A stretch of 64,000 bases of DNA from a virus. Its lineage: Duplodnaviria; Caudoviricetes. The position numbers were made by a program, and so were the translations under genes. Positions within the stretch are counted from its first letter, which is position 1; every line of letters starts with the position of its first letter. The notes beneath the pieces are model-generated. The model did no database searches. It saw nothing but the letters and a program-made list of their open reading frames with translations, and had not been told where the DNA came from. Of the stretch, positions 2,762 to 47,889 are shown piece by piece. The stretch covers positions 192,001 to 256,000 of IMG/VR virus record IMGVR_UViG_3300014204_013734. One strand, given 5' to 3'.

Positions 2762-3655
2762 ATGACCGAAAAGAAGACATTTCAACCATTTCCTGTTCAG
2801 CGGGTCATCATCAAGGCTTTTCGTGGCATTCAATTGGATTCCGTTGCCAAGTTCAGCATCCTGTCGGATTGGAAAAAAGGGAAGAAGGAAACCGTTACTG
2901 AGACGTCCCTCCTTCATTACCTTCACGATGAAGGCATGTGCAACACTTGGAAAATTGAAGTTGGAAGACCCTTCCAACAACTCGTTCTTTGTGCTGGACG
3001 TCGGGCTGGCAAGAGCTTTGTGGGGCACCGTCTCGTGGCGGATGCTTTCAACGAATTACGGTCTACGGATGATTTCCGAGTCGGTTTGGGTCTTGGGGAA
3101 GAAGAAGACCTGAACATGGCGGTTGTCGGCGCATGCAAGGAAATGACAGATTATTCCATGAATGCTATTTGGGATAATTTGAAGGGGGATGATTCGTTAG
3201 CACGGGTTGTCGGACGGATTTCAGATCCTAAACGCCGTTGTCGCATTGTAGCCATGTCGGCTTCCGGCAAGGCGTTGCACGGCAGTAAGAATTATTTCAC
3301 CTTTCTGGATGGAACCATACACGGCCCGAACCCCGATAAGGTTTACAGGTTGGCTCTGATGTCCGGTAAGGGCTTTAAGGGGTCTGCGGAAAGTAAAGTT
3401 GTGTCTGTATTTTCTCCGCCGATCATGCAGAAAGGTGCTGATTTCGCTTACAGGTTTTGGTTGTCGGCCCACCAGGATGCCGGGAATACCCTTTGTTTTC
3501 GCATCCCTTCTTGGGTGATGAACCCGACGATTTCCCGGGATGTGTGGAAGCAGGAAGCAGATCGTATGGACGAAGCCGTATTCCGGGCGGAATACGGGGC
3601 TGAATTTGTTAGTGCTGATGGAAAGCCGTGGAAAAATACAAAGGACCTTTACTAA
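2762..3655 (+). CDS. truncated terminase large subunit-like protein (ATPase domain only, degenerate Walker B)
   Basis: RBS AAGGAG; Walker A LVLCAGRRAGKS; Walker B-like YFTFLDG lacks the catalytic Glu; C-terminal PSWVMNPTI...FRAEYGAEF is typical of the TerL ATPase-nuclease linker; no RNase H-like nuclease follows. Confidence 0.7.
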   Translation: MTEKKTFQPFPVQRVIIKAFRGIQLDSVAKFSILSDWKKGKKETVTETSLLHYLHDEGMCNTWKIEVGRPFQQLVLCAGRRAGKSFVGHRLVADAFNELRSTDDFRVGLGLGEEEDLNMAVVGACKEMTDYSMNAIWDNLKGDDSLARVVGRISDPKRRCRIVAMSASGKALHGSKNYFTFLDGTIHGPNPDKVYRLALMSGKGFKGSAESKVVSVFSPPIMQKGADFAYRFWLSAHQDAGNTLCFRIPSWVMNPTISRDVWKQEADRMDEAVFRAEYGAEFVSADGKPWKNTKDLY

Positions 3656-3674
3656 GCGTTGACGGGAGGATTCT

Positions 3675-5009
3675 ATGCTTCATCAATGGGCTGGATGGGA
3701 AGTAGATCTACTGTCGGCGACACGCCCTTGGCTTCCTGCATCCGATCTTATTAGTTTGTTCAAGGCGTGCGGATCCGTCAGATCCAAAGATTCTTTGAAC
3801 AACAAGGCAACTGCTCTTGGTATTGACATACGGGGGCACAATGCCGAAAAGGCACTGTCAGCGGTCATCAAGTCAAAAATCCCACAAAACCTGAAACAAT
3901 TGGCGGTTACGTTCCTTGGAGGGGTTCCTATCGATACGTCGGAAATCGGGGATCCTTCAAAGGTAGCTGACCGAGTGGAAATTGACAAACTTCGGGGTAG
4001 GGTCCGGTCCCTTGAAAAGGACTTGGAAGAAGGCACCTATTTCGGCAAAATCGTGAAGGATCTGTTTTCCAAACCGGTTTCGGTTCCGGATTGGGTTCTG
4101 GCAGCCCCCAAGAAGAAATCAGGGAAGGTAGCGACCCCCCAACTGCTCATCAGTGATTGGCATTATGGGGAAGTCGTGGACCCGAATGCCATTTGGGGAG
4201 TCAACGAATACAACCCAGAAATAGCTGTCCGGCGCCTGCACCGTGTAGCACAAGCTGCTACCTCCATGTTCAAGGAATACTTGTCGGGATGGCGGTATGA
4301 CGGCATCATAGTCCCCTTGGCAGGGGACATGATTTCCGGCAAGATTCATGCAGAGTTGGAACGTACAAACGCCGAACAGTTGACTGATTCCGTTTTGTCC
4401 TGGTCAGCCGAATTGGCGCGTATGCTTACTGTCCTGGCGGATGCCTTCGGCAAAGTTTACGTTCCAGCGGTAGTTGGAAATCATGGCAGGGAAGATCTTA
4501 AACCTTCCATGAAGCAGGCCGTGGCCCGGAACTACGATTATCTGTTGTACCGACTTGTGAAACGGGAAGTGCATAATGATCCCCGTATTACGGTGGATGT
4601 GTCCCTTTCTACTTCACGTAGGTACACGGTTTACGGGCAGGGATACCACTTGATGCACGGTGACGATTTCAAGGGTGGTAGCGGTATTGCCGGTTCCTGG
4701 TCCCCTTTGAAACTCGGAGAACACCGGACGACGCAACAGTTCATGGATTTGGGACATGATTTTGAGTCTGGGTGTTTGGTTCTTGGGCACTTCCATCGTC
4801 GGATGACCGATATTGGTCTGATTGTCAACGGGTCAGGGATCGGTTACAATGAATTTGCATTCCGGAAACATTACAAATTCGAAAGACCCCAGCAGGCGGC
4901 GTGGATCACAACCCCGGAAAATGGCCAGACTTTGGAATTCCCTGTATTCTGTGATTCCCACGAGGAATACGAAGCCCAGATAGTTGCCGCCAGACTCTTG
5001 AACAAGTGA
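3675..5009 (+). CDS. calcineurin-like metallophosphoesterase with N-terminal helical/coiled-coil extension
   Basis: All five motifs present: SDWHYGE, GDMISG, GNHG, HGD, GHFH; RBS GGGAGG. Confidence 0.85.
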   Translation: MLHQWAGWEVDLLSATRPWLPASDLISLFKACGSVRSKDSLNNKATALGIDIRGHNAEKALSAVIKSKIPQNLKQLAVTFLGGVPIDTSEIGDPSKVADRVEIDKLRGRVRSLEKDLEEGTYFGKIVKDLFSKPVSVPDWVLAAPKKKSGKVATPQLLISDWHYGEVVDPNAIWGVNEYNPEIAVRRLHRVAQAATSMFKEYLSGWRYDGIIVPLAGDMISGKIHAELERTNAEQLTDSVLSWSAELARMLTVLADAFGKVYVPAVVGNHGREDLKPSMKQAVARNYDYLLYRLVKREVHNDPRITVDVSLSTSRRYTVYGQGYHLMHGDDFKGGSGIAGSWSPLKLGEHRTTQQFMDLGHDFESGCLVLGHFHRRMTDIGLIVNGSGIGYNEFAFRKHYKFERPQQAAWITTPENGQTLEFPVFCDSHEEYEAQIVAARLLNK

Positions 5010-5038
5010 AGGAGGTAGATTACAAATAATTTCCTTAT

Positions 5039-5255
5039 CGTTCCCCCACTTATGTGGGGTGATCTTGGAACCCCTTTGGTGAGTATTCCCCACATCAGTG
5101 GGGATGAACCGCGGCGTGGATTACGTTCCCTACACACGTGGGGATGGCCCGTGCTCGGCGTTTGTTCGTTCCTAATTCCCCACGTTAGTGGGGGTGACCC
5201 GTGGGACATCACCTTAGATTTTGATGTTGTTCCCCACATTAGTGGGCGTTGACTG
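5039..5255 (+). CRISPR. degenerate type I-E-like CRISPR mini-array (5 repeats, 4 short spacers), no cas genes in window
   Basis: Repeats at 5039-~5065, 5083-5111 (GTATTCCCCACATCAGTGGGGATGAACCG), 5123-5151, 5173-5201 and 5227-5255; 29-nt unit with CCCCAC-N4-GTGGGG hairpin and GRTGRNCCG 3' end like I-E repeats; spacers ~17, 11, 21 and 25 nt. Confidence 0.85.
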
Positions 5256-5271
5256 ACCAGAGGGGTTCCAA

Positions 5272-6471
5272 TTGTACTTTCAGTTAACCGAACAATTGAA
5301 ACGACGGTTCATTTTAGAACTCCGTCGTTTCTGGTCTACACATCCCCACTACTCCGACATTGTTGACAAAATTCAAGGGAAGTTTTCCTTCAAGGAACGT
5401 CCTTCCTACGGCATTATTGTCAAGACTTCCGGAGGTAACCGGGTTGACCTTTCCGCCGACAACTATATGGCTATGACGATCAGTTACGTCCACTTGGCGC
5501 GTGCAAGAAACAATCCTGGGGTTGCCATAGAATGGGTTCGTGAAGATTCTGTTGCCATTCAAAATAATGGAGGTATTTTTCCGTCTCTGCCTGGTGTTTA
5601 CTGGATTGAATTGACGGAGGATACTGAATTTTACGTTGACCCTCTCCTGAACATTGTCGGGGAAATCCCAACCCCTATTGACCTTACGACGTTTCAGTTG
5701 CAGCACGCCCCTGTTGCTGGGACTGTCCGTTTGTATGAGATGCCTGCCCGTTATATGTTGGTAGAGGGACAGAACTACACACTTTCCCTTGGACCTGATG
5801 GGAAACCGAATGGTGAAATCATTCTGACGACTCCGTTGACCAGAGACCGCTTTCTGGTAGCGGATTATCGTTTTCCAGCCCCCTCCCGTGGACCTTTCGT
5901 TTTGAACCCCGGTTATGCTGATAACAAAGCAATCCCGGGTGTGATTTTGGCATTTGGTAGGAGGAATCAGAAGGGTGATAAACTTGTTGTCATCGTTGAC
6001 GAAATTCGTCGTCCAGTTGCGTTGGAGTATGGTGGAAAATGGGACGTCACCTTAGATTTTGATGTCATTGCCAGAGATGTTCATGCACAGCAGGAAATTG
6101 CAGATGCAACCGTCGTCTGGATTTGGGCTGTCCTTCGGTCTTGGATGTCCCAGGAAGGTTTGGAAATTACCGACCTGTCCATGGGGGGTGAATCGGAGGA
6201 AACCTACGATGAAGCTGGTGACGACTATTTCTACAACTCTTCGTTTTCCTTGACCGTTCAGACTGATTGGCGCCTCCAGGTTCCTTTGAGTGCCTTTATC
6301 CGGCAAGTTACTCCTGAAACCAGCATTTATGCCCGGGGATTGGCTTCTATCCCGGATGCCCAGTTGGCTTTAACCCAACAGGGGATTAGGGCGGCTACCG
6401 ACTTGGGTTTGGAACTGGTTTCCGACCCCTTCTTTTCCGGGCGTATTGCCACATACGAACAAGTCCGGTGA
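5272..6471 (+). CDS. tail completion/neck-like virion structural protein
   Basis: 399 aa, TTG start after GAGGGG RBS; beta-rich, C-terminal DFDVIARD...QQEIAD...SFSLTVQTDW resembles tail-terminator folds; located upstream of sheath. Confidence 0.55.
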   Translation: MYFQLTEQLKRRFILELRRFWSTHPHYSDIVDKIQGKFSFKERPSYGIIVKTSGGNRVDLSADNYMAMTISYVHLARARNNPGVAIEWVREDSVAIQNNGGIFPSLPGVYWIELTEDTEFYVDPLLNIVGEIPTPIDLTTFQLQHAPVAGTVRLYEMPARYMLVEGQNYTLSLGPDGKPNGEIILTTPLTRDRFLVADYRFPAPSRGPFVLNPGYADNKAIPGVILAFGRRNQKGDKLVVIVDEIRRPVALEYGGKWDVTLDFDVIARDVHAQQEIADATVVWIWAVLRSWMSQEGLEITDLSMGGESEETYDEAGDDYFYNSSFSLTVQTDWRLQVPLSAFIRQVTPETSIYARGLASIPDAQLALTQQGIRAATDLGLELVSDPFFSGRIATYEQVR

Positions 6472-6540
6472 TTTTCGTTATTCTCCTTATCGGACACAAC
6501 TTTTGGTGAGGGTTATATCCTTTTTCCAAGGAGGTACGGC

Positions 6541-6993
6541 TTGCCGATTTTTGATTATCAGTGTTCGTGCGGAATCCGGTTTGAAGCCCCAGGTAAAATG
6601 TCGGAAAACATGAAGCCTTGTCTTTGTCCGGGATGTGGGAAGGATGCCGAACGGATTGTTCCTTCTACGTTGGAAAGTGTATTCCACCAAGACGTGACAG
6701 GTCCGGTTCCCCAGAACACGGGGATTTCCGCAATTGATGCGGACATTGACCGAGCCATCGGCAAATCGTCGGAAACCGGCTGGAAGGCGCATGTCGAACG
6801 TGTGGCTGAGAAAAAGAGGATACTTTCTGAAAATCCCGAAGCTTCAGGTTACGACCTTACGGAAACCCCGGATGGGGATTTTGAAGTTATGCCGAAGGAT
6901 AAACGGGGGTTCCAGGATAGGGCTTTGGAAATCAACACCTTGGCTGTTGGAACATTGAAAAAAGAAGCCCTTCCAAAAGGGGATGGAAAATAA
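6541..6993 (+). CDS. FmdB-like zinc-ribbon protein
   Basis: MPIFDYQCSCGIRFE...CPGCG signature; AAGGAGG RBS before TTG. Confidence 0.75.
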   Translation: MPIFDYQCSCGIRFEAPGKMSENMKPCLCPGCGKDAERIVPSTLESVFHQDVTGPVPQNTGISAIDADIDRAIGKSSETGWKAHVERVAEKKRILSENPEASGYDLTETPDGDFEVMPKDKRGFQDRALEINTLAVGTLKKEALPKGDGK

Positions 6994-7809
6994 GTGCGGA
7001 CCTATTTGATTTACAAGGCAACTTCTCCTTCCGGGAAGATTTACGTAGGGCTTACCAGCCAAAAAATGAAGGTGAGAAAACACCAACATTATTCGTCAGC
7101 TAAGCGGTTTCAAAGTTCTGGGGCTTTCCAGAAGGCCCTTCTCAAGTACAGGACTGCTATGACGTGGGACATCTTGGAATCTGGACTTCCTGACTTTGAA
7201 GCTGCCGCTGCCAGGGAACGGTATTACATAGCCTTGTTTGGAGCAAATATCTCAGGTAAAGGCTACAACCACACGGAAGGAGGGGGTCAAGGAAGACCCT
7301 TGAATTCCAAGAATTCCAAATCTAATATTGATCCGGTCTTGCGTTCTGATGGGATTGTTTTTCCTTCTGCACGGGCTGCTGCTTTGGCTATGGGAGCAAA
7401 GTGTGATTGGGCTGTTGGAAAGGCCATCAAGAATAAAGGCACCTGTGGTGGATTTTCTTTTCGGCGGATATCCGTTGAAGAATATGAATCTTTGAAAGAA
7501 ACATGTACCCCTAAGAACGTTCCCATTGTTCATTGGACTTATGCTAGGACTTTTTCTGATGCCGTCAGACGGAAGATATCGGAAACAAAAAAAGGGAAAC
7601 CTTTAAAGCACACCAGCAAACCTGTTAGGCGTTCGGATGGGGTTTTGTTTCCGTCCATAAAAGAAGCAGCGATTTCGGTTGGTACGACATCAGACGCTTT
7701 ACGCTATGCTGCACAAAGAAACCAACTTTGTCATGGGTTTTTATTTGAGATTTTTCCGAAAGGAATTTCGGTGGTCGCCCTATTGAAACCCCTTGGTGGA
7801 CAGGATTGA
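6994..7809 (+). CDS. free-standing GIY-YIG homing endonuclease (Seg-like) with NUMOD-type DNA-binding repeats
   Basis: LIYKATSPSGKIYVGLT (GIY-YIG), R..QH, ERYYI, GYN; duplicated PV.RSDG..FPS...AA..G modules; RRKISETKKG NUMOD3-like. Confidence 0.85.
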   Translation: MRTYLIYKATSPSGKIYVGLTSQKMKVRKHQHYSSAKRFQSSGAFQKALLKYRTAMTWDILESGLPDFEAAAARERYYIALFGANISGKGYNHTEGGGQGRPLNSKNSKSNIDPVLRSDGIVFPSARAAALAMGAKCDWAVGKAIKNKGTCGGFSFRRISVEEYESLKETCTPKNVPIVHWTYARTFSDAVRRKISETKKGKPLKHTSKPVRRSDGVLFPSIKEAAISVGTTSDALRYAAQRNQLCHGFLFEIFPKGISVVALLKPLGGQD

Positions 7810-13188: not shown

Positions 13189-13209
13189 GACCCAAGGAGG
13201 TTGTTTTTT

Positions 13210-15123
13210 ATGGGTGGTCCCAAGTCTAAAGCATCCCACGAAGAAATCATTTCCGTTTTCCACACGGAAGAACCCTTCAAAGCTTTTGCCGCCCGGATCG
13301 GAATGAGCCCGAATACCCTTCGGGATATTTGGAAAGCTGAATTTGGGGAAGCAGCTTTCTTTGAACGGGGAAAGCGTTTGCAGGCAAAAGCGGCTTCGGC
13401 TGTTGCCAAGGCAAGTGCTGCCGCTGGGCGGGTTTACCGTGACGTTGAACTTGTCTGTTCTTCTTGTGGACGGAAGGTTATCCTGAAGTCCAACCAAGTA
13501 GGCCAGATGGACGATCCTTCAAAATTCATATGCCATGATTGCCGTGGGGATCGGAAGTGTCCCATCTGTGGGTTGGCTATTGAAGGGAAACAAGGGCTTT
13601 CTACGCACTTTCGGTGCCGCCAGAAGGCGGGGGATGCTGCCCATACTGCCTATCTTGAAGATCAAGCAAATGCCGTTTGGGCTGGTAAGACAGAAGGGGA
13701 AGATTACGTCACTTGTTTGGAATGTGGGCACAAAGCAGAAACCCTTGCCAGGCATTTGAAGGCCGCGCATGGGTTGGATGCAGTTGCTTACACGAACAAA
13801 CACGGTTCTGGTGTTCCTATTAGGGCTGACAAAGTGACCCAGAATATGTCAAAAGCGGCTCTTGCCAGGTGTCTTATCAGCACCGGCAAGGGTGAAGTTA
13901 AGACCGTGGCGTGTCCTTCTTGTGGGGTTCTTAGGAAAGTTTCCAAGTTCATTGTCCCTGGGGTCCACGAATTGAGATGTTCTGATTGTCGGAAGAAGGA
14001 TGAGGACCTTTACTGGTCCAAATTTTCAGAACCACAGGATTTCGTGACCTGCTTGGAATGTGGTTACAGGGCTGAAAATCTTACGAGTCATCTGCAAAAC
14101 AGTCATCCTGAATACAGGAAAAAATATCCAGAGGCTTTGGTTGTAGCGTTAGGTTCGGAAGTTCGAAACAAGGATTGTTTGAAAAACGTTCCCCTTTCTT
14201 TAGAAACCCGACAGAAAATGTCACGAAATGCTGGGCGTTGGAACAAAGGGTTGACCAAAGAATCTGATTCAAGAATAGCGGCATTGGCGAAAAAATGTTT
14301 GGGTCGTGTGTCTTGGAATACGGGTTTGACGGCAGATAAGGATGAACGTGTACGCAGTATGGCTGAAAAATTGAAATTGTATGTGGGGGATTCCAGACCT
14401 TGGAGCAATGGATTGGCGGCAAATTTGACTTTGGATGATTTCAAACCTTTCCTGGATTTGGAAGGGTGCGTTGATCACCGTGCCGTTATTGAAAAGACTG
14501 GGTTTGATGAAGTTACGATTCGGAAGTGGATGAAGATTGTGGGTTTGAAGCCGAGTAAGAAATACATTAAAAATGCGGCAGAAGCACGAATTGTCCGAAT
14601 AGAAAAGGCTGATTTGGAACGCTTTCGTTTAGCCAACGGGAAAGTGGTTATTGGAAGAGTTATGGTTGGTTTAAGACATACTTTCCAGACGGTAAGGAGG
14701 GAATGTAAACGTCACGGGTTGCCTACTTGTCATCAACATATTCGGCAGACGCGTTTTTTGGACATAGTTTCCAAAATTTTAGGGGTCCCCTATGAAGAAG
14801 AATGGAATTCTCGTCGGTTTGTCAACCCAGTGTCGGGACGCCGGTTTAAGTTTGATGGTTACTTTCCATCCATCGGTTTGATTGTTGAATTTCATGGGCA
14901 CCAGCATTACACATTTCCGAATGTTTTCATGCCTCACGAATCCTATCGTCCTTTGTGGGAAGCCATGTTGGAACGGGATCGAATCAAGAAGGTCTTGATA
15001 GACGCGACACCAGATTTGATTTGGTTCAGTGTTCTGGAAAAAGAACCTTGGGAAGACGTTTCGTACTTGAAAGGACGCTTGATTGATTCAGGTGTTCTTC
15101 CTGAAGAGGAAAAAGAAACATGA
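13210..15123 (+). CDS. multi-zinc-finger endonuclease (MucR/Ros-like Zn fingers, WNxGL repeats, C-terminal PD-(D/E)XK/DUF559-like nuclease); probable homing endonuclease
   Basis: N-terminal HTH; several CxxC; two VTCLECG...L..HL...H units; WNKGLTKESD/WNTGLTADKD/WSNGL repeats; C-terminal FKFDGYFPSIGLIVEFHGHQHY. Confidence 0.7.
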   Translation: MGGPKSKASHEEIISVFHTEEPFKAFAARIGMSPNTLRDIWKAEFGEAAFFERGKRLQAKAASAVAKASAAAGRVYRDVELVCSSCGRKVILKSNQVGQMDDPSKFICHDCRGDRKCPICGLAIEGKQGLSTHFRCRQKAGDAAHTAYLEDQANAVWAGKTEGEDYVTCLECGHKAETLARHLKAAHGLDAVAYTNKHGSGVPIRADKVTQNMSKAALARCLISTGKGEVKTVACPSCGVLRKVSKFIVPGVHELRCSDCRKKDEDLYWSKFSEPQDFVTCLECGYRAENLTSHLQNSHPEYRKKYPEALVVALGSEVRNKDCLKNVPLSLETRQKMSRNAGRWNKGLTKESDSRIAALAKKCLGRVSWNTGLTADKDERVRSMAEKLKLYVGDSRPWSNGLAANLTLDDFKPFLDLEGCVDHRAVIEKTGFDEVTIRKWMKIVGLKPSKKYIKNAAEARIVRIEKADLERFRLANGKVVIGRVMVGLRHTFQTVRRECKRHGLPTCHQHIRQTRFLDIVSKILGVPYEEEWNSRRFVNPVSGRRFKFDGYFPSIGLIVEFHGHQHYTFPNVFMPHESYRPLWEAMLERDRIKKVLIDATPDLIWFSVLEKEPWEDVSYLKGRLIDSGVLPEEEKET

Positions 15124-36177: not shown

Positions 36178-39100
36178 ATGTTCAGATTTACAGGTCAAGT
36201 TCTTGAAGGTGTGAGGGTTTCGCCCGCCAACCAACCGACAACTGAAGAACCCAGTGACGGTGTGGTTCGCGATGTGCGTGAAGTTCCAGGCACCTATATC
36301 ACGAAACCGGGGGCACCTTCTTTCATTGATGCCCGTGCAGATCAATGGCGGGCGGCAGTCATTGACGCTCCGGGAACGACCCCCCAGGAATGGTTGGTTT
36401 GGGCTGAAAACACTTCCCAATTGGCCTTGGTTGATGATCCCGATTGGTGGACTTCTCAGGGTTTGGGGACGATTCCAGAAAACGGTGTCTTGGATGTACC
36501 GGATGTCAAAACCTTTGAGATTCATACCGATGGGAGCAGCAAATTTCTTGTTACGGATGACGGAAACCGAAGCATAGGGACTGTTCTTCTGTTTGTTGCT
36601 GCCCGGGGTGATGTTGATTATGATGACAACGGTTGGGAAGACCCCAACAACCCTTCTGCTGGGCGTAAAGGGGATAACCCTTATCCGTGGTGGTTTGTAG
36701 ATACGACAGATCAGAATCCCGTTTCAGGGGTAGTTACGCTTTCAGCGGCGCAACTGGTTGTTTTGGGGGGTGGTTTATCTCCGTCTCGCGGGGATTCTCT
36801 TGTTGAAGTTCGGTATACAATTGCTCCGTCCCGATTCTGGTGGACAAAAAACGACCGATACGAAACCCGATTCGGATGGAATGGCAAGACGCAACGTTGG
36901 GAACCTTGGAAAGGTTCCCCCGTCAAGAATCTTGGCCTTCTGCTTCTTGATCAAACAACATTCCACATGGATCCAAAAGTTCGGAATCTTCCTGTTGGAT
37001 CTTTCCTTCCTGGGGACTTGGTTGTTCCTGACAGTTGGTCCATGATCCGACTTGGGTCTGATCCCGGTGTAACAAGCATTCCTGTTGCACCTGATTCCAG
37101 CGGAGCTTCCGATTTTTCAGGGGTTTTGGTTCAGCCTGATTCCGAAATTGCTGACTTTGATTTTGGACTTGTTCCTGATGTGGCGGGGGTTATGGGTCAG
37201 TCTGGTGGGGAATTATCCTTTAATCCGGCATTTGTTCGCAAGCATGCCGGAAAGACGGTTTGGTATTCTTATCGGGGATTTTCTGAATCTGAAACGGGTG
37301 TAGTTGGCAAACTGCTGGATGCAAAAACCACTTCCTTGTTCCTTGCTCCTCTGCCTGGACCTACCGATTTCCCGATAATTCGTTTTGGAAATCGGACGCC
37401 TGTGGCAGTTCAGTTGTTTCTGACTGATGCTGACATGAACTTGGCCGTTAGTCCGTCGGCAGGGGTTGTTTACGTATCTTTGGCAACGGGGCGTTTGGTG
37501 ATTAGTCAAGCGGACCTTGCCAAGTCTGATCCTGATAACGTGACGGCATTTGATAAACAATGGTACGGGGCTGATGTGATTTATGATGGGGTAGCCCTGA
37601 ATCAGATCCCTCAACCGTCATCATATCCTGTTCCTTTGGTAGACATTTTCGGGAATCCTCAGCTTTGCGGACCGGATGTTGATTTCTATATCCCTGACGC
37701 TTCTATGCTGCCTGGTTTGGGGTTGTCTGGCATTCTTCAAGTGTCTGACCGGACCGGATCGGTTCCGATGGCGGGTGTTGTCGGTACGCGTCCTGGAGGT
37801 GATAATCCTGGTGATGCCAATACAGGATTGATCAGGAGTCTTTCTGACGGTGTGGGGGACACCATTCTGTTTTCCAAGACGCATGCGTTGACGAATATCA
37901 GGACTGTTACTTTACCTGCGGATCTTCCCGATCCTGGTAAAGTACGAACGGGTTGGGCTACGGTTTGTTTGAAGAATGCTAGTCTTCCGGGATTGCCGGG
38001 GTTGTCTCAGGTAATTCTTTCCAAAACGGACATCCAGGCGTTTGCGGATGATTACGTCTATTTCCTTCAGTCTTCATTCACTCCCGCTGTTTACACAACA
38101 ACCGCCAGGATATATTCCAGGAATAGAGACATCTTTCGTTTTGATGGTACGGAAGTTTTCCACTTCGCTTTCACGACCCCTTTGATTTGGAATTCCGCTT
38201 CCTTAATTTCAGCATTTCCGGAAAAGGACTTCTTCACTGCCGAAGAAGTTGCTGCGTCAATTGATGCAATTATCCCTCCTGGTGATGGCCGTTCGTGGGC
38301 CTTGAATGGCAGAATAATTCTGGAAGCGGATGATCCTGACACGGGGACCGTGGAAATTGGATGGGGAGTTGGCGGGGTGATGGATTTGTCCGGAGCTGCC
38401 GCTTTGGGATTTCTGCCCGGATGGAAAGCTTCGGGGGGTGTGGCGAACCGGCTTCCGGATTCCGGCGCCGCTGTTGGTCTATTTCGCAGCCCCCTCAATC
38501 TGGATCGTCGGTTGGCGATTCCCGACTTTGCCCACGTGGAACGATTGCGTGGGGCTATTGTCTATGACAGCATTCCGCCCAACCCTTTCACATTTTTGAC
38601 TAACCCCCCATTGGAAGATGTGGCCGGATATGATGAAGGTGTGTTCTTCAATCTTGTCAATACGGTTCAGGATGGCGACAATATCAGAATTGTCAGCAAA
38701 TATCTTGAAAACTGGTCCGATGTTGTCTACAGGTTTGGGCAAGGAAAATTTGACTGGGTTACTTGGGATGCAATTACCGAACCTGTCAACAGGGCCATAA
38801 CGACAATCAACCTCGGGCATTCAGGGGTTGTTCAGGAATCCATGCGTTTGGCTCCTGGTATTCCTGGTTACCTGTCAGCGAACGTGGACGGGGAAGGGGA
38901 TGTCTGGCAGGATCCCGACAACGATTACATAATGCCGCAGGGCGGTATTACTGGGACGGCCACATTCATCAGGCGTTTCGGAAAGCGGGTCCTTTCTGGG
39001 GCCCAGGGATCATTCAGTGCCGGGGCAGGTACTTTTTCAGATCCTTCGGTCAATTTTACTGATCCTCGTTGGGGAATACAGCCGGGTTTCCGTCTGAAAA

Positions 39101-42100
39101 TTACCAGTTCGGAAGGAGAAGGGTCCTACACGGTTTCAACCGTGTCTTCGCTTTCCTTGCAGGTAGCTCCGTTATTCTTGGTTGGAACGACCCGTCCGGC
39201 TACTTGGGAACTTTTTGAAGGATTCGTTGAAGATGTCTACGACCCCATGTTGGTCGCTGATGTTCTTTACCAGAATCTTTCTCCTCTTCCCGACGAACCT
39301 TTCAAGGTTCGGGTTCTGTCTCCGTTGGGGGTTGTTCCTGAAACGGCTTCCGATTTGGCTACAAATCGTCCGAAGGCGGAAGTTGAAGGGGCGTTGTCCA
39401 GCGGTCGTCCGGTGTCTGTTAGATATGGGGCTGTTGCACCGTCCGTCATAAATGTTGCGTCCCTGACGTGGTTGACCAAGACGGATTTGGGAATCATTTC
39501 CAATACCGGCATCATCGTCCCAATCGGGGAACGTTTTGATGCGTTGGCTTTTTCCATTCAGGTAGGTACGGCGAATTTCAGTTTTGCCGCTGGAAGTTTG
39601 TTTGCTGTTACGGCTTTCAGTCCTGATCCTGGGGATGCCATTGAATGTCTTACTGTTTCTTCAGGTGTCTTTCCGAAAGGACAGTTGAAATTCGGCAGCC
39701 TTGTTTTATCCAAATTCCCACAAGCCCGTGTCCTGGCGGTTGATGAATTCATGCCTCCTGCGCTTCTTCTTCCGCTTCAGGCGGAATGTGATCCGGTGAC
39801 GGGGGAGATCAACTATTCCCAGTCGGACATGGATGATTTCCATGGTATTCGTGCCTATTTTGTTGAACAGATGATCACGGACAATGACCAGGATGTTTCA
39901 ATCCAACCCATGACAGGGACATGTGCATTTTTCCGTCCTCTGCCCAAGGGTGTCCTGGTTGAAATGGCTTATTGGGCTTCTGATTTGGAAGGACGAAAGG
40001 TCGGAAACGAAATCGTGGAATTTCTGCCGGTGTTCATCCGGAATGAAGTTGCCAAAAGGGACCGTCCCAATGTCTTTACGTACAATGCTTCCGGGGACAC
40101 CATCAACAGGGTCATAGAACCTATTGTATTCGTCCGAGGTGCGCAGCAAAATTATGGGGAAGTCAATTACGTCGTAGATTATACGGATATTGGGAGGGGA
40201 CGCCTGACGTTCGTTACTTACGACATTACGGATGATTGCGATGTTAAAGTCACCTATGCGGTAGCAGAAGCTCAGGGGGGGGAACGCGTTTACGAAACCA
40301 GCACGAAACCTGTCTACAGACCCCCATTCTTCATCAAAACGGCGCAGAACCGATTTGGGCTTCATGGGGATCGTCGATCGGAATTCAAGGCAGGACAACT
40401 GCTTCGTATTGGTGGGGAATGTTTTTACGTCAAGGGGGTCCGTTATTTCCCTCCGGTCATTATTCCTCCGGTAGTCCCATCGGAATTGCCTGCTTACAAG
40501 CAGCCAATTTCTGTTTCCCCGCCGCCTTCGTCCGGTGATATTACAGCAGTGTATATTTATCCGCCTACGATTCAGGAAGTTGGTTCCAGAGCTCCTGGGA
40601 GAGATGTCTTTCTGGGAATCACCCCGATGGCGGTCACTCCTGTGGTTGATCCTTTTGGGGATTCTCCTGGACCTTACGGTAGTCCTGCTCCCGTACCAAC
40701 GGACGCAGCTTTGGGGATAATGTTTGATCTTGATTTGACGGACTTTCCGTTTGAGCCTGTCAACCGAGGCCAAACTACCATTGTTTTTAAAGGGGATCTG
40801 ACGCGTTTTTCAGTACCGGGACACATTCTTGAAATCGGGGGTGTTCCTTACACAATTTCCGGGGCGGATTTGACCGTAGATGGATCAAGGACAAACGTAT
40901 CTTTGACTTCGGGAATCCGAAAGAGCTTCACTGTTGATATGGCCCCGCCAGTCCGGTTGACTTGGAGGCCGATCTATCCCCCCAACTGCAGGACATTCCT
41001 TGGTGTCGGGCCGTTCGTTCAAGAAGAGGGATGGGAACTTGTCCTGTGGGGTGAATCAGGTCCGAATGGGGAAAACCCTGGTCGCACTTTGGTTCCCAAT
41101 TCTGAATACGTGATTGACCAGAACAGTGGGGCTATAACTCTACTGGAACCTTTTCAGAATGCTATGAATGCCCCGCAAAGGTTGTCTCTGTCATACACTT
41201 TGTTGCGGGGGTTGCAGCCGTGGGTGAAAGACGGTGTTGTAGGAAAACCTTCGTGGACCGCTTTGTATTTGCATAGTGAAAGTCCGAGTGAAGAAAACGG
41301 TATTTTGGGCGGAACCCTGGCAGCAACATACACGTTCCGTAACCCTGATACTTTTTACGTTCGGTCTGCCCCCTTGGAACAACTTATTGTTGATGTGACA
41401 GCGGAAGTCGTCCAAGAAATCAACAGCAAGCAACCGGCAAGCAGCGCCCCCAAACCTGTCGGCAAGCCTAGCAACTGGAATCAGGGGCGGGTTGGTTTGA
41501 GGACGGAACGGAAGCACTTGACCGACAAGGATAGGGTAGCCAGGACATTTCTTGATTTCTACAACACTGCTATCAATGCTTTTGAACAGATTGAAGAAAC
41601 TATTTCGGGTGACATCATTGGAGATAGTGATGGGAAGTTCCGTCATTGGGTTGGCCGTGGTAAGGAATGGTTCACTCCTGGATACGAAGATCCCATCACA
41701 GGGGTGTTGACACGACGGGATATCTGGACGGAAGTGTTTTCTGAATGGCTTCTTCCAGGGACTTGTGTCTATTTTCAACCGACCGACCCAATAGTTGATC
41801 CGTGGTCGTTTACGTTAACGGACGGGGTTATTGACGGAGAAACCCCTGACTTGGATTTCGTTCAAAGCCTTATGGATACGCAGAAGTCACGGGTGAGAAA
41901 TGAAGTTGACGATTACGTCCTTTCTGGTACCTATTCCAGGCGGTCACGTCGGGATGGGTACCCTTACTTCAAACATATTCTCCGGGGACGGTTTTCCCCG
42001 ATGTTCATGCGGCATAAGTATTCCCGTCTGTTCCCTACATGGACCAAGACGTTTCTTCGGACAAACCCCGGTCTGGATTCCAATCCTGCTGCCGGTGATC

Positions 42101-45100
42101 CCGGATTCTTTACAGCGGGTCGTTACTTTTACGATTCCAAACGGGGTGAAAAAATTGTTCGCAAGACCACTGGAGACGATATTGGGCAGGTACAGAACCC
42201 GGTCCTTGGCGACATTACGTCTGTCAACGCCATCACACTTTTCAAACGTCGGGCAAGTGCTCGCGTCTGGGGTTATTTCCCGGACGGTATAGCCGCCGGA
42301 GCTTTTGGGACAGTAGGGGGGATTCCTGTCCCGGCTGTTCCCGTTTTGGGACCGTGTTTTGTGGCGACCCCGCTTTCCCTGAAGGACTTTCCTATCAATC
42401 CGTCGACGGGTTGGCCTGATGTTTCTCAATTGGCTAGCGTGACGGCGACTGGGGTTGCTGATCTGATGTCCGGGGATCCTGACATGGCCATTCCTGGTTT
42501 CCTTGGCGGGTTGCCAACTACCCTTCCTGGTGGCCTCACCATTTCCACGAAAGGTGATCAGATTGCCCTTGGGAAACCAGACGGGACAGTTTGGAGGCTT
42601 TGTGACGCCGACGGTGGAAGTGCTACCAGTGCAGGTATTTTTTCCTTGCGGGGCATCTTCGTCAATGCGATTCTTTACGGTTGCATCATGACCTTGCAGG
42701 ACGGGGACGGAAATGTAATCCTGGATCCCGCCCGGGTACTTCTGGCTAAAGATGACTCAACTGGGGCGCCTGCGGACACTGGGGTTAACGCAGCTACACG
42801 TGGGGACACTTTGATGTCCATTTCCAAGGATGGGGCTGCGGCGCCTGATAACCCCCCGACTTCCGAAGAACTGGAAGAAATCGCGGAAAGTTCTGATAGT
42901 TTCAGGATTGGTTTTGACGTGTCTGTTTTCCGGGATGGGCGGATCGTCGACATGACTTTTCCGTCGGTTCTGGATCCAAGATATTTTGGCATCAAAGAAG
43001 TTCTTGGTCAGAATCCTCCTGAACCTTTGTCCTGCATCGGAGGATCCGTCAACTTCACCTACGAAGGGCAGAATCCGGTTGAAGTGCCAGCTTTGAACGG
43101 GGAGGCTTTGGACGATTCGGGTGATCGGGCAGTCCCTTACCTGAAAGTTTCCAATACGGAACTGGACCGGTTTGAGGACGGGGGTTCCATATTGGCGGAT
43201 GTGCTGAAGGTAGATACTTTGGCGGTTCGTCCTTTGTCTGTTGGTGGACCTTGGGGCGTTTGGCCGGACGAATTTGTCGGTAACGACGGGACTGCCATGA
43301 CAGAACCCCCGTTGCCCGGCGTTACGCCGGATGATCAGCCGGGTTCTCTTATGACCATGGAAGACCTTGGTCCAAGGAAAGCTTCACCGCCCGCTCCGGC
43401 CGCTCCGTGGGGTAACGGGACGGCAAATGTCCGTCCTCACGATATTTTGTTCGTTCAAGTTCAGGACATTGCAGATCCGACTGATGGACCGTTTTCGGCA
43501 GCAGGTCTTCCTATCAAGGGGCCTCAAGGTATCCAGTCTGTCGGTCGGGTTCGTCTTCTTGAGACCGACTGGAATCTTGACCCATCCGGGGTTATTGATC
43601 CGCGGCACGGTATTGGGTCTTTGATTGAAACGCCGAGATTTGTGACCAGGACGAGTCCTCCTGCCGCCCCTCCTTTGCCGGATACTGCATCTCCGGTCCG
43701 GCATGCTATTGAGAATGCCTTGGTTCACGTGTCTGATCCACAACCCCCCGACCCGCCGCCTGTTACCGTTGATGGGGTTAAGATTTATGCGTACAAGGCT
43801 CGGCAACTGTTGATCTTTGATTTGACCGGAACGAATTTTACTTTGCATGATGGCCAGACCGAAGGTGTTGGAGGGTTGAATAACCTGTGGTCCGGGGTAG
43901 GCGCAAAAGCAAACAACAAGATCGTCATCCAGCCCATTTCCAGGAAGGATTCTAATATTCAGTGGGGACCCGGTGGGGCTGACGTGTCTGTCCTGAAACT
44001 TGGCGGTGTCGTTGTCATGACGTTCACTATTCAGGGGACCAACATCACGACCAGGGATTATTGGACGCACCCGCCTGGAACTACCACATTTACTAACGCA
44101 CATTTCGGGGAAAGTATTGTGTCCGTTCTGGGTGGGACACTTCCCGGTATCGTATCCGACCAAACGGATCCCCGATACATTATCCTTGAAAACGTTGTGG
44201 ATACGGACCTTCTGAAACTGTGGCAGACGCCTTCTGGGGCGCCGCCACATCCGACTAGCACCTGGTTCATTCCCTACACTGAAACGGCGGATCCGGGATT
44301 CCCTGGAACTTGGTTCCAAACCATGAATTATGGCGAGGATGTGTCCATTGGGGTTGACACGACGGCAACTGGCGAATCTACAACGGCCTGGATTGATGAA
44401 GACCGTCTGACATTCCACGAAGCGTTTGATTTGCGTTGGATGAAGGAACGGGGTTTCACCCACCCGCTTAATGCAACAACCATCTTGGAATCCCGTTTTG
44501 CTGTTAAAGCCGTGACCGTTGGTCAAACAACGGTGACCAGTTTTTGGTCCGACATTGACACATACTGTAACGGGGCGGACAGTGGTGGGAATCCTCTTCC
44601 CTACACGTTCCTTGCCCGGGCGGGGGTTATAGGGACGTGGGTTCCCAGGACGGCGACGGTATCGGAAGATGGTTCCGTGGCGGTCATGGGATTTGAAGGT
44701 TGGCAAGGAACAACTGGCAATATTCCGGTGCTGTCCACTTTGGCCACGTTTTCCGCCGCTCCATCCAACGAATTCTGTTGGATTGTCAATCCGGCCGGTT
44801 TGGAACAATGTGTCCCAATCTGTTCTGGAACGGGTGTTACGGAAAGCCGATTCAGCATCATTGTCGGTTCAGATCAGCTTGATGACCGAATCACGAGCAT
44901 TGGAGTCACTCTTGGTGACATGGCTAGGATTGAACCGGGGGATGTTGCCGTCGTGTCCAAATCGGTAAATGCGACACATCTGGCTACAACCAAGGCGGGC
45001 ACTTACCTTGTCAGGCATGCCATTGCTGAAAATATTCCTGTTATTGCAGCCGATCAACGTGTTACGGCGCCTTCCATCATGCTTGGGGTGTCTGATGTGG

Positions 45101-47889
45101 GTTGGTGCCCCTTGCAATTCCCAACGGTTGTGTCCTGGAATACGACAACATTTGTTTTGGAATTGTCGGATATGGCTCTTCTCCCGACGCCTGTTCCCAC
45201 TACTTGGGGCGTGCGGGATGTTGGATTCCCTCCGGCTCCTGGCTATGTTTATATCCTTCTGAATCCCGAAGACTTGAAGACGGTAGATCCTCTCGGGACG
45301 CCGGAAGAGTATGCCATTGCATGGGCAAAATTCCAGAAGGCAGTTTTGCGGCTCAGATACACATCCCTGATTCCAGCCAGCAATGAAATGGTCATTGATG
45401 CGACAGCTTGCGTTTTTGCCGACGGTGCTGCCATCTCTTTAGCAGACCTTAATAGTTTGATGTCTGGTGCAACCTGTCAGGTTTCCGGCATGCAGGTGTG
45501 GCCCATCAACGTGTCGGGGGCCGAATATGGGCTTCCTGACGATAACGTAGTCGGCTACGATAATGGCGGTGCAATCCAGATGGGTTTTGAAATGGTGACA
45601 TTGACTCGGGGGGCTGGCACTACTCCCATTGTGTTGACATTCCCAGGCAATTTCGTCCCCCGTCTCGGGACCCCGATCCCCCCCAACGTCTTTGATGCTT
45701 ACGAGCACGCTCCGGTTTATGATAGGGTAGTTTGCGGCGCCACGGTTGACGGCATTTTGGCGGCGGATTGGAAGGACTTGAATGTTCCTGCGACGGCCAT
45801 CAAGTATGCTACCGCAATTGTCAATTGCATCCTGCCCGGCACGACTGCCGCCATTGCTGACTTGACTGTTTCCCCACCGGATCCAAAACATCACGCTGTG
45901 GCCGGCATCTATTTCCAACCGGCTTTTCCGCGTCAAGCGTTGGATTTGATTGCTGATCATCCCAGGGTCGTAGATGCGCAATGGTCATTGCCGTTGCCGG
46001 ATCCGTTACCAGACCCGAACCGTGAACTTGGGATGCGGGATTCTGTGTCCTATTCAATGGGTGTCGCTCCCGTAGTTCCTTCGGAAATTGAATTTACGAT
46101 TCGCCGAATTCGGCGTTTCCATTCCATAGAGGGCATTGACCTTAAGCTTGAACCTTTACGGCATGTTTGGGAAATTAGGAGGGGCAGAATCACCGCTTAC
46201 ACATCTGACAAGCAGCGTGGGGTTGTGACTGCTCGCCAGTTCACAATGGACTTTGACATCGGACGTGTCCCAGGGGACCCCAAGACGCCTGATGTCTGGA
46301 ATGACGGGAAGACATATAGCGGGACAAATTTGGGTTTGTTCACGGATACAGATACCAATATCCACGCTGGGGATATGTTCCGGCTTCTGGCTTCTGATGG
46401 TACGTTGCTGGAAGAAACCCGCATTGAAACGATCCTGAATGGTTGGACCCTTCGCCTTGCATCCCCGGGATTGGTGTCCGTTGCCCCTGGCAGCCTCGTA
46501 GGGATGCGTTTTGAAGTGTGGTTGCATCAAATGCCGGTTCCTCAGGAACAATCGTGTGAACAGATTCTTGATCTGATTACGGACAGTGAAGTGTGCCGGA
46601 CCGATGCTACGTGGGGGGGCGTTGATGAACAGGGAGGTTACGTCCCTGAATACGATTCTTTGATTCCTTGGACAGACCAAACGAATCTGCTGTTTGATGA
46701 CTTGAATGCTGACGGTACAACCCCCAGTAAGACATTTGGTGGGTTGGGTGTTCAGGTTGGTGACATTGTTATCGTTGACCCCTTGGGTACGATTCCCATG
46801 AAGGGGGGGTTGCCGGTTATTCAGGAAAAGGGCGTCCGACCCATCGGGGACGAAGGGGTTCCAGGTCGCAAGGGTTGGATGGGTGGCGTAGATGGTGTGG
46901 ATACTTTCCGGGCGGGTTTTCCGTCAGCTTTGGACGACAACCGGGGATTCTGGAGGGTTGTTAAAGTTGCGGATTCTGAAAGCGGTGCGGCTCCCCACTT
47001 GATTCTTGATCCTCTGAACACCTTTTCCGGGGATTTGGATGCAAATGTCGTGTTTGATCCAACGGATGTCCGACGTGCTTACGCTGTCGTTCCTACCGTA
47101 TCGGCGTCTATGCTGAATCGTGCTGATCCCGATCCTGACACTTGGTTAGAACGACAGATGGATCTTCGTCCCACGAAAGCCAGGAACGCCGTTACCGGAC
47201 GGTTTTCTACGACGCCTCCTACATGGCATTCCATCAGACCTTTTTCCTACAGGATCATCCGTCCATCTTCCTTGTTTTCTACAGAATCCCTTGATCTGGC
47301 GTTGCATACCAGGGAGAGGATGCTGTCTTTGATTGAATTGGTTGGGCGTGGGTTTGATGACAAGAACGGGAATTGGTGGGATTTCCAAAACTTCCTGCAT
47401 GTTCACGACCTGGGGTTTACTTGGAATCCTGAATCCGGGCTCGGGGTGTTGCGGAACGTTCAAGTCATGGCGGTTCTTGGGAGGACGGATGTGACTCCAT
47501 TCATGAACAATGAAGGATGTCTGTCTTTCTTGGACCGACGTTTCTGGATTTTGGACAAAAGGTTGGATAATCTTGTTCCGTCTGAACTGGCAGACCATAG
47601 GCCTTACGGCATGAAGATTGCCGACCATGCGGCGCCGCCGGAATCGTATACGGCGTGGGATGATATTTCAGGTTCCAAGGTTCGTCCCGTACTGCCTGAA
47701 CGCATTGACGAAGTGTTGGATCAGCGAGACCGATTCAGACCCATCAGGTATGTGTGGCTTGCTTACCGGACACACGAGATATTAGGTACGTTGGCGGCGA
47801 TCACACGTTTTGATGTGGAACTGCCAGAACGGCGTGTCCAGCAGTTGGAAGCTCTTCTCAAACTCCTGACTCTGGAGAATGCAACATGA
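36178..47889 (+). CDS. giant (3903 aa) virion structural protein, probable baseplate/appendage
   Basis: Uninterrupted 11.7-kb ORF, beta/Pro/Gly/Thr-rich, inside baseplate cluster. Confidence 0.75.
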   Translation: MFRFTGQVLEGVRVSPANQPTTEEPSDGVVRDVREVPGTYITKPGAPSFIDARADQWRAAVIDAPGTTPQEWLVWAENTSQLALVDDPDWWTSQGLGTIPENGVLDVPDVKTFEIHTDGSSKFLVTDDGNRSIGTVLLFVAARGDVDYDDNGWEDPNNPSAGRKGDNPYPWWFVDTTDQNPVSGVVTLSAAQLVVLGGGLSPSRGDSLVEVRYTIAPSRFWWTKNDRYETRFGWNGKTQRWEPWKGSPVKNLGLLLLDQTTFHMDPKVRNLPVGSFLPGDLVVPDSWSMIRLGSDPGVTSIPVAPDSSGASDFSGVLVQPDSEIADFDFGLVPDVAGVMGQSGGELSFNPAFVRKHAGKTVWYSYRGFSESETGVVGKLLDAKTTSLFLAPLPGPTDFPIIRFGNRTPVAVQLFLTDADMNLAVSPSAGVVYVSLATGRLVISQADLAKSDPDNVTAFDKQWYGADVIYDGVALNQIPQPSSYPVPLVDIFGNPQLCGPDVDFYIPDASMLPGLGLSGILQVSDRTGSVPMAGVVGTRPGGDNPGDANTGLIRSLSDGVGDTILFSKTHALTNIRTVTLPADLPDPGKVRTGWATVCLKNASLPGLPGLSQVILSKTDIQAFADDYVYFLQSSFTPAVYTTTARIYSRNRDIFRFDGTEVFHFAFTTPLIWNSASLISAFPEKDFFTAEEVAASIDAIIPPGDGRSWALNGRIILEADDPDTGTVEIGWGVGGVMDLSGAAALGFLPGWKASGGVANRLPDSGAAVGLFRSPLNLDRRLAIPDFAHVERLRGAIVYDSIPPNPFTFLTNPPLEDVAGYDEGVFFNLVNTVQDGDNIRIVSKYLENWSDVVYRFGQGKFDWVTWDAITEPVNRAITTINLGHSGVVQESMRLAPGIPGYLSANVDGEGDVWQDPDNDYIMPQGGITGTATFIRRFGKRVLSGAQGSFSAGAGTFSDPSVNFTDPRWGIQPGFRLKITSSEGEGSYTVSTVSSLSLQVAPLFLVGTTRPATWELFEGFVEDVYDPMLVADVLYQNLSPLPDEPFKVRVLSPLGVVPETASDLATNRPKAEVEGALSSGRPVSVRYGAVAPSVINVASLTWLTKTDLGIISNTGIIVPIGERFDALAFSIQVGTANFSFAAGSLFAVTAFSPDPGDAIECLTVSSGVFPKGQLKFGSLVLSKFPQARVLAVDEFMPPALLLPLQAECDPVTGEINYSQSDMDDFHGIRAYFVEQMITDNDQDVSIQPMTGTCAFFRPLPKGVLVEMAYWASDLEGRKVGNEIVEFLPVFIRNEVAKRDRPNVFTYNASGDTINRVIEPIVFVRGAQQNYGEVNYVVDYTDIGRGRLTFVTYDITDDCDVKVTYAVAEAQGGERVYETSTKPVYRPPFFIKTAQNRFGLHGDRRSEFKAGQLLRIGGECFYVKGVRYFPPVIIPPVVPSELPAYKQPISVSPPPSSGDITAVYIYPPTIQEVGSRAPGRDVFLGITPMAVTPVVDPFGDSPGPYGSPAPVPTDAALGIMFDLDLTDFPFEPVNRGQTTIVFKGDLTRFSVPGHILEIGGVPYTISGADLTVDGSRTNVSLTSGIRKSFTVDMAPPVRLTWRPIYPPNCRTFLGVGPFVQEEGWELVLWGESGPNGENPGRTLVPNSEYVIDQNSGAITLLEPFQNAMNAPQRLSLSYTLLRGLQPWVKDGVVGKPSWTALYLHSESPSEENGILGGTLAATYTFRNPDTFYVRSAPLEQLIVDVTAEVVQEINSKQPASSAPKPVGKPSNWNQGRVGLRTERKHLTDKDRVARTFLDFYNTAINAFEQIEETISGDIIGDSDGKFRHWVGRGKEWFTPGYEDPITGVLTRRDIWTEVFSEWLLPGTCVYFQPTDPIVDPWSFTLTDGVIDGETPDLDFVQSLMDTQKSRVRNEVDDYVLSGTYSRRSRRDGYPYFKHILRGRFSPMFMRHKYSRLFPTWTKTFLRTNPGLDSNPAAGDPGFFTAGRYFYDSKRGEKIVRKTTGDDIGQVQNPVLGDITSVNAITLFKRRASARVWGYFPDGIAAGAFGTVGGIPVPAVPVLGPCFVATPLSLKDFPINPSTGWPDVSQLASVTATGVADLMSGDPDMAIPGFLGGLPTTLPGGLTISTKGDQIALGKPDGTVWRLCDADGGSATSAGIFSLRGIFVNAILYGCIMTLQDGDGNVILDPARVLLAKDDSTGAPADTGVNAATRGDTLMSISKDGAAAPDNPPTSEELEEIAESSDSFRIGFDVSVFRDGRIVDMTFPSVLDPRYFGIKEVLGQNPPEPLSCIGGSVNFTYEGQNPVEVPALNGEALDDSGDRAVPYLKVSNTELDRFEDGGSILADVLKVDTLAVRPLSVGGPWGVWPDEFVGNDGTAMTEPPLPGVTPDDQPGSLMTMEDLGPRKASPPAPAAPWGNGTANVRPHDILFVQVQDIADPTDGPFSAAGLPIKGPQGIQSVGRVRLLETDWNLDPSGVIDPRHGIGSLIETPRFVTRTSPPAAPPLPDTASPVRHAIENALVHVSDPQPPDPPPVTVDGVKIYAYKARQLLIFDLTGTNFTLHDGQTEGVGGLNNLWSGVGAKANNKIVIQPISRKDSNIQWGPGGADVSVLKLGGVVVMTFTIQGTNITTRDYWTHPPGTTTFTNAHFGESIVSVLGGTLPGIVSDQTDPRYIILENVVDTDLLKLWQTPSGAPPHPTSTWFIPYTETADPGFPGTWFQTMNYGEDVSIGVDTTATGESTTAWIDEDRLTFHEAFDLRWMKERGFTHPLNATTILESRFAVKAVTVGQTTVTSFWSDIDTYCNGADSGGNPLPYTFLARAGVIGTWVPRTATVSEDGSVAVMGFEGWQGTTGNIPVLSTLATFSAAPSNEFCWIVNPAGLEQCVPICSGTGVTESRFSIIVGSDQLDDRITSIGVTLGDMARIEPGDVAVVSKSVNATHLATTKAGTYLVRHAIAENIPVIAADQRVTAPSIMLGVSDVGWCPLQFPTVVSWNTTTFVLELSDMALLPTPVPTTWGVRDVGFPPAPGYVYILLNPEDLKTVDPLGTPEEYAIAWAKFQKAVLRLRYTSLIPASNEMVIDATACVFADGAAISLADLNSLMSGATCQVSGMQVWPINVSGAEYGLPDDNVVGYDNGGAIQMGFEMVTLTRGAGTTPIVLTFPGNFVPRLGTPIPPNVFDAYEHAPVYDRVVCGATVDGILAADWKDLNVPATAIKYATAIVNCILPGTTAAIADLTVSPPDPKHHAVAGIYFQPAFPRQALDLIADHPRVVDAQWSLPLPDPLPDPNRELGMRDSVSYSMGVAPVVPSEIEFTIRRIRRFHSIEGIDLKLEPLRHVWEIRRGRITAYTSDKQRGVVTARQFTMDFDIGRVPGDPKTPDVWNDGKTYSGTNLGLFTDTDTNIHAGDMFRLLASDGTLLEETRIETILNGWTLRLASPGLVSVAPGSLVGMRFEVWLHQMPVPQEQSCEQILDLITDSEVCRTDATWGGVDEQGGYVPEYDSLIPWTDQTNLLFDDLNADGTTPSKTFGGLGVQVGDIVIVDPLGTIPMKGGLPVIQEKGVRPIGDEGVPGRKGWMGGVDGVDTFRAGFPSALDDNRGFWRVVKVADSESGAAPHLILDPLNTFSGDLDANVVFDPTDVRRAYAVVPTVSASMLNRADPDPDTWLERQMDLRPTKARNAVTGRFSTTPPTWHSIRPFSYRIIRPSSLFSTESLDLALHTRERMLSLIELVGRGFDDKNGNWWDFQNFLHVHDLGFTWNPESGLGVLRNVQVMAVLGRTDVTPFMNNEGCLSFLDRRFWILDKRLDNLVPSELADHRPYGMKIADHAAPPESYTAWDDISGSKVRPVLPERIDEVLDQRDRFRPIRYVWLAYRTHEILGTLAAITRFDVELPERRVQQLEALLKLLTLENAT

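Follow-up and report, generated by a model that had tools for sequence, protein, structure and literature searches.

Cas-less CRISPR mini-arrays have been described in the Saccharolobus portogloboviruses SPV1 and SPV2, where they target relatives at sites that lie close to the array for unknown reasons (PMC6858448). The carriers' own sites are protected by point mutations (Medvedeva et al., 2019, PMC6858448), the SPV1/SPV2 mini-array model is given in PMC7099407, and in modelling work imperfect self-matching has been counted as a cost. We analysed a similar element in the DNA of a huge bacterial phage, namely an array of five type I-E-like repeats and four spacers (17, 11, 21, and 25 nt) at positions 5037–5255 of a 64,000-nt stretch (hereafter the window), which corresponds to bases 192,001–256,000 of the 381,280-bp IMG/VR virus record IMGVR_UViG_3300014204_013734 (~72% complete). 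As in SPV1 and SPV2, the array is Cas-less and intergenic, its repeats are of host type, its target loci lie near the array, and the carrier copy is point-mutated. It differs from them in that the phage is bacterial and huge, the repeat is of type I-E, it has four spacers where SPV1 and SPV2 have one or two, and its spacers, at 11–25 nt, are shortened and its repeats degenerate. SPV1 and SPV2 also target each other, whereas the collections contain no relative of this phage above 78% amino-acid identity, and among those found none surpasses the phage's own match to any spacer. The core pattern is thus known from the archaeal viruses SPV1 and SPV2, and the present case is its bacterial, type I-E, attenuated variant. 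We favour, at a probability of about 0.4, the reading that the locus is a virus-borne, Cas-less type I-E mini-array of attenuated design, similar to that of CRISPR RNA (crRNA)-like RNAs (crlRNAs), which serves interviral conflict.

Other described systems share parts of this design. Viral Cracr arrays (Liu et al., bioRxiv 10.1101/2024.10.29.618823) are likewise multi-unit, with degenerate psi-repeats and short psi-spacers; those of the I-E example measure 24 and 21 nt, as compared with 25 and 21 nt in this phage. By analogy, the present array may be expected to give a Cascade complex that binds without cutting and competes with immune crRNAs. Cracr spacers, however, match host cas or creT promoters, while the spacers of this phage match its own flanking genes. 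RNA anti-CRISPRs (Racrs) are repeats carried by phages that mimic those of CRISPR arrays and have no cas genes with them (Camara-Wilpert et al., 2023, PMC10651486); the element studied here differs from them in being a five-unit array with target-matching spacers and not a solitary unit, although three solitary units elsewhere in the genome do fit the Racr definition. With the host CreR and CreA guides the array shares short psi-spacers, partial matches to DNA within some hundred bp of the guide gene and flanks resembling the protospacer adjacent motif (PAM). Unlike these guides, it lies outside a cas locus, its targets are coding sequence or a ribosome-binding site instead of a mapped promoter, and two of the four seeds are broken.

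The five I-E-like repeats and four spacers reported in the first-pass annotation of this DNA were recovered on the plus strand, with the repeats spanning 5037–5255. A canonical I-E repeat is 29 nt long and combines a hairpin with a ATGAACCG-type handle. Psi-repeat R2 (5083–5111) fits this description, and the hairpin is kept in all five units. R1 (5037–5065) is the most degenerate and has an additional C in the stem, R3 (5123–5151) carries a C>T change in the stem that retains a G-U pair and has the handle ATGGCCCG, R4 (5173–5201) has the handle GTGACCCG, and R5 (5227–5255) is the terminal unit, with a degenerate handle. Outside its loop R2 agrees, in 25 of 25 bases, with the repeat of genuine arrays from many bacterial genomes, whose period is 61 nt; R2 is a genuine I-E repeat. 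Arrays with this repeat, which has the form GTATTCCCCAC-N4-GTGGGGATGAACCG, occur in Chloroflexi, Desulfovibrio, Leptospiraceae, Cytophagales and others, and the repeat is spread over many phyla. Among cultured bacteria it is present in Desulfovibrio piger ATCC 29098, Fibrella rubiginis and Spirosoma panaciterrae. In all four sequencing runs the R2 stretch attracted 10–100× extra depth from short contigs with ~3 mismatches in 31 positions. In these contigs 32–35 unrelated letters separate the repeat copies, which indicates real arrays with nearly this repeat and spacers of ~32 nt in the same communities; organisms with the repeat thus inhabit the same samples. The locus itself departs from a canonical I-E array in its periods (46, 40, 50, and 54 nt; canonical ~61), in its spacer lengths (11–25 nt; canonical 32–33) and in its repeats, which are only 67–83% alike. 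Across seven units, deviation from the canonical repeat amounted to 3/84 positions in the stems vs. 28/91 in the flanks (p = 2e-6): the hairpin is preserved, and the handle has drifted. The possibility that the altered handles imitate separate families of real repeats found no support among 94 viral loci, where they recur only in other solitary or mini units and not in real arrays. In agreement with the description of the array as Cas-less, the Pfam families of Cas6e, Cas7e, Cse1, and Cas1, the only four searched, had no match in the 381-kb record. A 66-codon frame (5052–5252) is open across the whole array, with S4 read in the tail-terminator frame (WDITLDFDV); as it lacks a ribosome-binding site and matches no family, it is probably due to chance.

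Each of the four spacers has a match in or next to one of the two flanking genes, an exonuclease gene upstream and a gene for a tail-terminator/neck protein downstream. Spacer S1 (5066–5082, plus strand, 17 nt) matches the minus strand at 5254–5270 in 15/17 positions, with mismatches at positions 11 and 16; together with its AAT flank this target (5254–5273) includes the ribosome-binding site GAGGGG of the downstream gene and adjoins its TTG start codon. The 11-nt S2 (5112–5122, plus) matches the plus strand at 4897–4907 in 10/11 positions, or 12/13 if two bases of the repeat are counted; the site (4894–4907 with the AGG flank) is within the 3′ portion of the exonuclease gene. S3 (5152–5172, plus, 21 nt) corresponds in 19/21 positions, with mismatches 3 and 15, to the minus strand at 4358–4378 in the middle of the exonuclease gene (4358–4381 with the AAC flank). 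S4 (5202–5226, plus, 25 nt) matches the plus strand at 6040–6064 within the tail-terminator gene in 24/25 positions, with a single mismatch at position 7; its AAA flank (6037–6064 with the target) is a Lys codon, in which a change between AAA and AAG is silent. Coordinates and flanks were as first reported. The claim that every spacer targets its own locus held for S1, S3, and S4, whose unique best non-self match in the whole 381,280-bp record is the nearby site, at most 850 bp from the array. It held less well for S2, which is statistically weak and whose best match is equalled at five other places. The local matches, tested by 5000 shuffles within ±1 kb, had p values of 8e-4 for S1, 0.03 for S2 and <2e-4 for both S3 and S4. 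The PAM-side flank of each match sits at the spacer end that follows the repeat handle, all four flanks fall within the permissive I-E PAM set (chance ~3e-4), and the matches end at the spacer borders.

Inspection codon by codon confirmed that the four mismatches in coding targets are synonymous or conservative: ATC/ATT, GAA/GAG, and CGT/CGA are silent third-position differences, which include both mismatches of S3, and GTC/ATC, the sole mismatch of S4, exchanges Val for Ile. The spacers copy both flanking genes in the PAM-side orientation, and every difference from the resident genes is silent or conservative. This indicates that the divergence arose under protein constraint, either on the gene side or between alleles, and all of the spacer-target divergence looks like gene-side or allelic change. 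The S4 target lies within the most conserved motif of the protein, EYGG[KR]W[DE][LIV]TLDFD, and the Ile variant occurs in 21 of 120 homologues. Spacers mismatch their targets at 6/74 positions, a lower rate than the 15/52 by which the repeat flanks have drifted (p = 0.003). The two longest spacers, S3 and S4, were indeed mismatched to the resident DNA in the seed (positions 3 and 7, respectively) and have non-AAG flanks, whereas the 10-nt seeds of S1 and S2 are perfect. Only S3 and S4 exceed the length of ~20 nt at which interference by type I-E persists in Escherichia coli (PMC5159557), and they are exactly the seed-mismatched pair. The low spacer divergence and the limitation of seed mismatches to S3 and S4 indicate that the guides have mattered to this genome.

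Under the favoured reading of an interviral mini-array, the array would be transcribed by read-through from the exonuclease gene; no plus-strand terminator was found between that gene and the array, and the intervening leader-like stretch (5010–5036, plus strand), as read from the sequence, is A/T-rich and holds an orphan AAGGAGG with no open reading frame (ORF) behind it. Host Cas6e would then cleave at each hairpin, and the short guides would enter host Cascade. In E. coli I-E, Cas6e processes units irrespective of spacer length (PMC5159557). The guides may stem from a ~7% divergent sibling or from an earlier form of this phage, and primed adaptation is proposed as the reason why all four come from one 1.7-kb stretch. 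Their target would be the unmutated allele in co-infecting relatives. The carrier would be spared because, on its own DNA, the two guides of sufficient length to act (21 and 25 nt) are confronted with mismatched seeds and flanks other than AAG: mismatch 3 with an AAC flank for S3 and mismatch 7 with an AAA flank for S4. Since the spacers are shortened, the outcome would probably be binding, weak interference and priming, not clean cutting. The five array hairpins, together with the three solitary repeats in the transfer RNA (tRNA) cluster, may also occupy Cas6e and Cascade.

Several results weigh against this interpretation. The first-pass annotation had taken the spacers for a different allele of the same two genes and had looked to related phages for better matches, for a diversity signal centred on the array and for orthologous arrays. 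While the mismatches do look allelic or escape-like, no allele matching any spacer better than self was found in IMG/VR, the JGI metagenomes, the protein collection or the four runs. This search combined exact and wobble-degenerate scans for S3 and S4 alleles with protein-based retrieval of relatives and a comparison of the four runs with the locus; it returned either 100% identical copies or relatives with at most 78% amino-acid identity, and nothing between. The best foreign S4 match reached 21/25 vs. 24/25 for self. No I-E units and no better alleles were present in the relatives examined (L005–L011 and L226–L241 for the tail-terminator gene, and the closest exonuclease homologue, L242), so that orthologous arrays do not exist among them. 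Nor was there a diversity signal: the four runs, from three studies, contained only identical phage contigs and no variant alleles at the locus. In E. coli I-E, interference with a 26-nt spacer was weak and did not protect against M13; at 20 nt it was lower again, and at 14 nt only priming was left (PMC5159557). By these data, spacers of 11–25 nt with degenerate handles should give at most weak interference, and clean Cas3 interference is unlikely. Among the 94 viral loci, moreover, no real array has the degenerate 5′ handles. Host Cas1-Cas2 inserts spacers of 32–33 nt, hence the truncation of the spacers must be secondary, and it is unexplained. Of the earlier interpretation as a whole, the I-E-type array, the PAM logic and the relation of the spacers to the flanking genes were upheld; the sibling allele and the orthologous array were not found.

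Somewhat less probable, yet a serious possibility, is that the locus acts as an RNA anti-CRISPR decoy of the Racr/Cracr type, in which the hairpins trap Cas6e and Cascade in useless undersized complexes and the spacers are vestigial. Here a host array would have been raised by primed adaptation against the region and captured by an escaper through recombination at the protospacers, which would explain why the array lies beside its targets; the spacers would have been shortened after capture and thereby made harmless to the carrier. The conserved stems and drifted handles described above fit a decoy, as do the changes at PAM position −1 and in the seed, which resemble escape from host immunity. 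There is experimental documentation of Racrs for type I-E and of I-E Cracr arrays whose psi-spacers measure 21 and 24 nt, and the viral mini-arrays L158, L161/L205, L184, L191, and L208 have degenerate handles and 20–25-nt spacers too. A further point in its favour are the three solitary type I-E-like units outside the window (genome positions 48959–48987, 53397–53425, and 56250–56278), which sit inside the tRNA cluster on the transcribed plus strand, one of them between tRNA-Arg and tRNA-Gly. The sequences downstream of all three have no match in the genome and serve as an internal negative control; the units are candidate RNA anti-CRISPRs co-expressed with tRNAs. A decoy, on the other hand, would leave the spacer sequence unconstrained, yet we saw no spacer-side drift, which would look non-silent. 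Moreover, the phage was matched neither by the seven spacers of host arrays obtained from the runs nor by any spacer of 120 genome loci, and the junctions bear no direct trace of recombination. Conversely, matches of the phage spacers to host cas loci (120 I-E loci, 0.77 Mb; candidate hosts) did not exceed chance level.

A cis-regulatory role is unlikely. The spacers would in this case give CreR/CreA-like crlRNAs, and host Cascade would be borrowed as a programmable repressor of the phage's own exonuclease and tail-terminator genes; at the RNA level, S1 might instead keep the ribosome-binding site of the tail-terminator gene sequestered up to cleavage of the transcript by Cas6e. S1 (AAT) and S2 (AGG) have perfect 10-nt PAM-proximal matches, which satisfies the crlRNA criterion of at least 9 bp, and targets beside the guide gene are a hallmark of CreR and CreA. 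The S1 target spans the ribosome-binding site and abuts the start codon, and in the predicted RNA fold S1 pairs with this target in a 16-bp helix that closes the array (z = −6). A second phage, G001, carries a 25-nt spacer with a 24/25 target 657 nt away, an AAG flank and an intact seed. The helix at the ribosome-binding site and the G001 mini-array keep this reading alive. Against it, S3 and S4 combine seed mismatches with weak flanks, contrary to the needs of a guide that has to bind, S2 is weak statistically, no promoter was identified at any target, and there is no obvious gain from tying a structural gene to a host defence complex.

It is improbable that the array is a selfish, protein-free homing element, as the first-pass annotation proposed. 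The guides would in this case direct host Cascade-Cas3 to the array-less allele of siblings on both sides of the insertion point, and repair of the damage from the carrier genome would copy the array. The targets do bracket the array, within 850 bp on each side, the carrier copies are mismatched at the seed or PAM, and the same target proximity, unexplained, is found in SPV1 and SPV2 (PMC6858448). The region is also a known landing zone for mobile genes, with a GIY-YIG gene 0.5 kb downstream whose presence varies among relatives. Yet shortened guides cut poorly, and the collections and relatives yielded neither a sibling without the array nor a conversion tract nor another carrier. If homing were true, it would also account for the closeness of targets to the mini-arrays in SPV1 and SPV2. 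Finally, the view that the locus is not CRISPR-related, but consists of structural hairpins or terminators or of the 66-aa ORF with chance similarities, can draw on the frame open through the whole array and on S4 lying in the tail-terminator frame, yet it is close to refuted by the identity of R2 to a real I-E repeat at 25/25 non-loop bases, by match statistics and PAM-like flanks far beyond chance, and by the lack of a ribosome-binding site or family match for that ORF.

The upstream gene (3675–5009, plus strand) encodes a 444-aa metallophosphoesterase-type 'exonuclease' that matches PHROG 284 at 2.4e-38; PF12850 or PF00149 is present in its homologues, and the targets of S2 and S3 lie within the gene. 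A sigma-70-like site is present at 4822–4850, upstream of the S2 target. The gene is non-syntenic, as it adjoins the tail-terminator block in no relative, where other small genes are found instead, and its closest homologue (L242, 63% identity) is found elsewhere, in the vicinity of a ParB gene. A joint arrival of exonuclease gene and array is possible. The downstream gene (5272–6471, plus strand) codes for a 399-aa tail-terminator/neck protein conserved in huge phages, with 826 homologues. Its identity is supported by an AlphaFold model (pLDDT 80), for which Foldseek returned the phage 812 neck protein (E = 2e-9) and lambda gpU, and protein-atlas matches point to SP10_terminator. Further downstream, a free-standing GIY-YIG homing endonuclease gene (6994–7809) lies between a zinc-ribbon gene and a gene for a 1765-aa protein; it occupies the same place in the relatives L226, L236, and L241 and is absent in L005, L006, L008, L228, and L233.

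The phage is roughly 440 kb in size, and an identical protein is also encoded on a 444-kb contig. All large ORFs are on the plus strand, and the genome has 35 tRNA genes. The source samples were landfill and groundwater metagenomes, and the 3-kb region 3600–6600 of the window is identical between 2018 landfill runs and 2022 groundwater runs in three studies. No Rfam family was detected in the window. Elsewhere in it we noted a gene for a 640-aa protein with a ROS/MucR domain (13201–15123) and a separate single ORF of 3903 codons (36178–47889).

Repeat units of other kinds, and other mini-arrays, were also seen. Outside the window, at genome positions 350950–351160, three ~37-nt hairpin repeats ending in ACACGTTGAA are separated by spacers of 35 and 44 nt; neither spacer has another match in the genome, which provides a second internal negative control. 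The phage G001 (L197; 38419–39121) has a complete 86-kb genome with terminal repeats, and its 25-nt spacer belongs to a two-repeat I-E mini-array. The target of this spacer is an iteron-like motif near an integrase, and the spacer also matches two tandem 61-nt units beside the integrase gene; two solitary repeats are present in the same genome in addition. In the viral contig L135 (8450–9250), a gene segment is present in two tandem copies, and behind each copy lies an I-E mini-array. In the first of these arrays the final repeat breaks off at the hairpin and passes straight into a second copy of the sequence found upstream of the same array.

Taken as a bacterial counterpart of the portoglobovirus mini-arrays, the locus is a clean example of a Cas-less viral array all of whose spacers map to its immediate neighbourhood, and from the silent differences in PAM and seed it is evident that CRISPR pressure has shaped it. 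It joins three strands that have so far been treated apart, namely interviral mini-arrays, RNA anti-CRISPRs and crRNA-like regulators. The five units and four targets offer a concrete construct for asking why the targets of viral mini-arrays cluster beside the array, and the same construct addresses what naturally shortened I-E guides do: cut, prime, repress or sequester.

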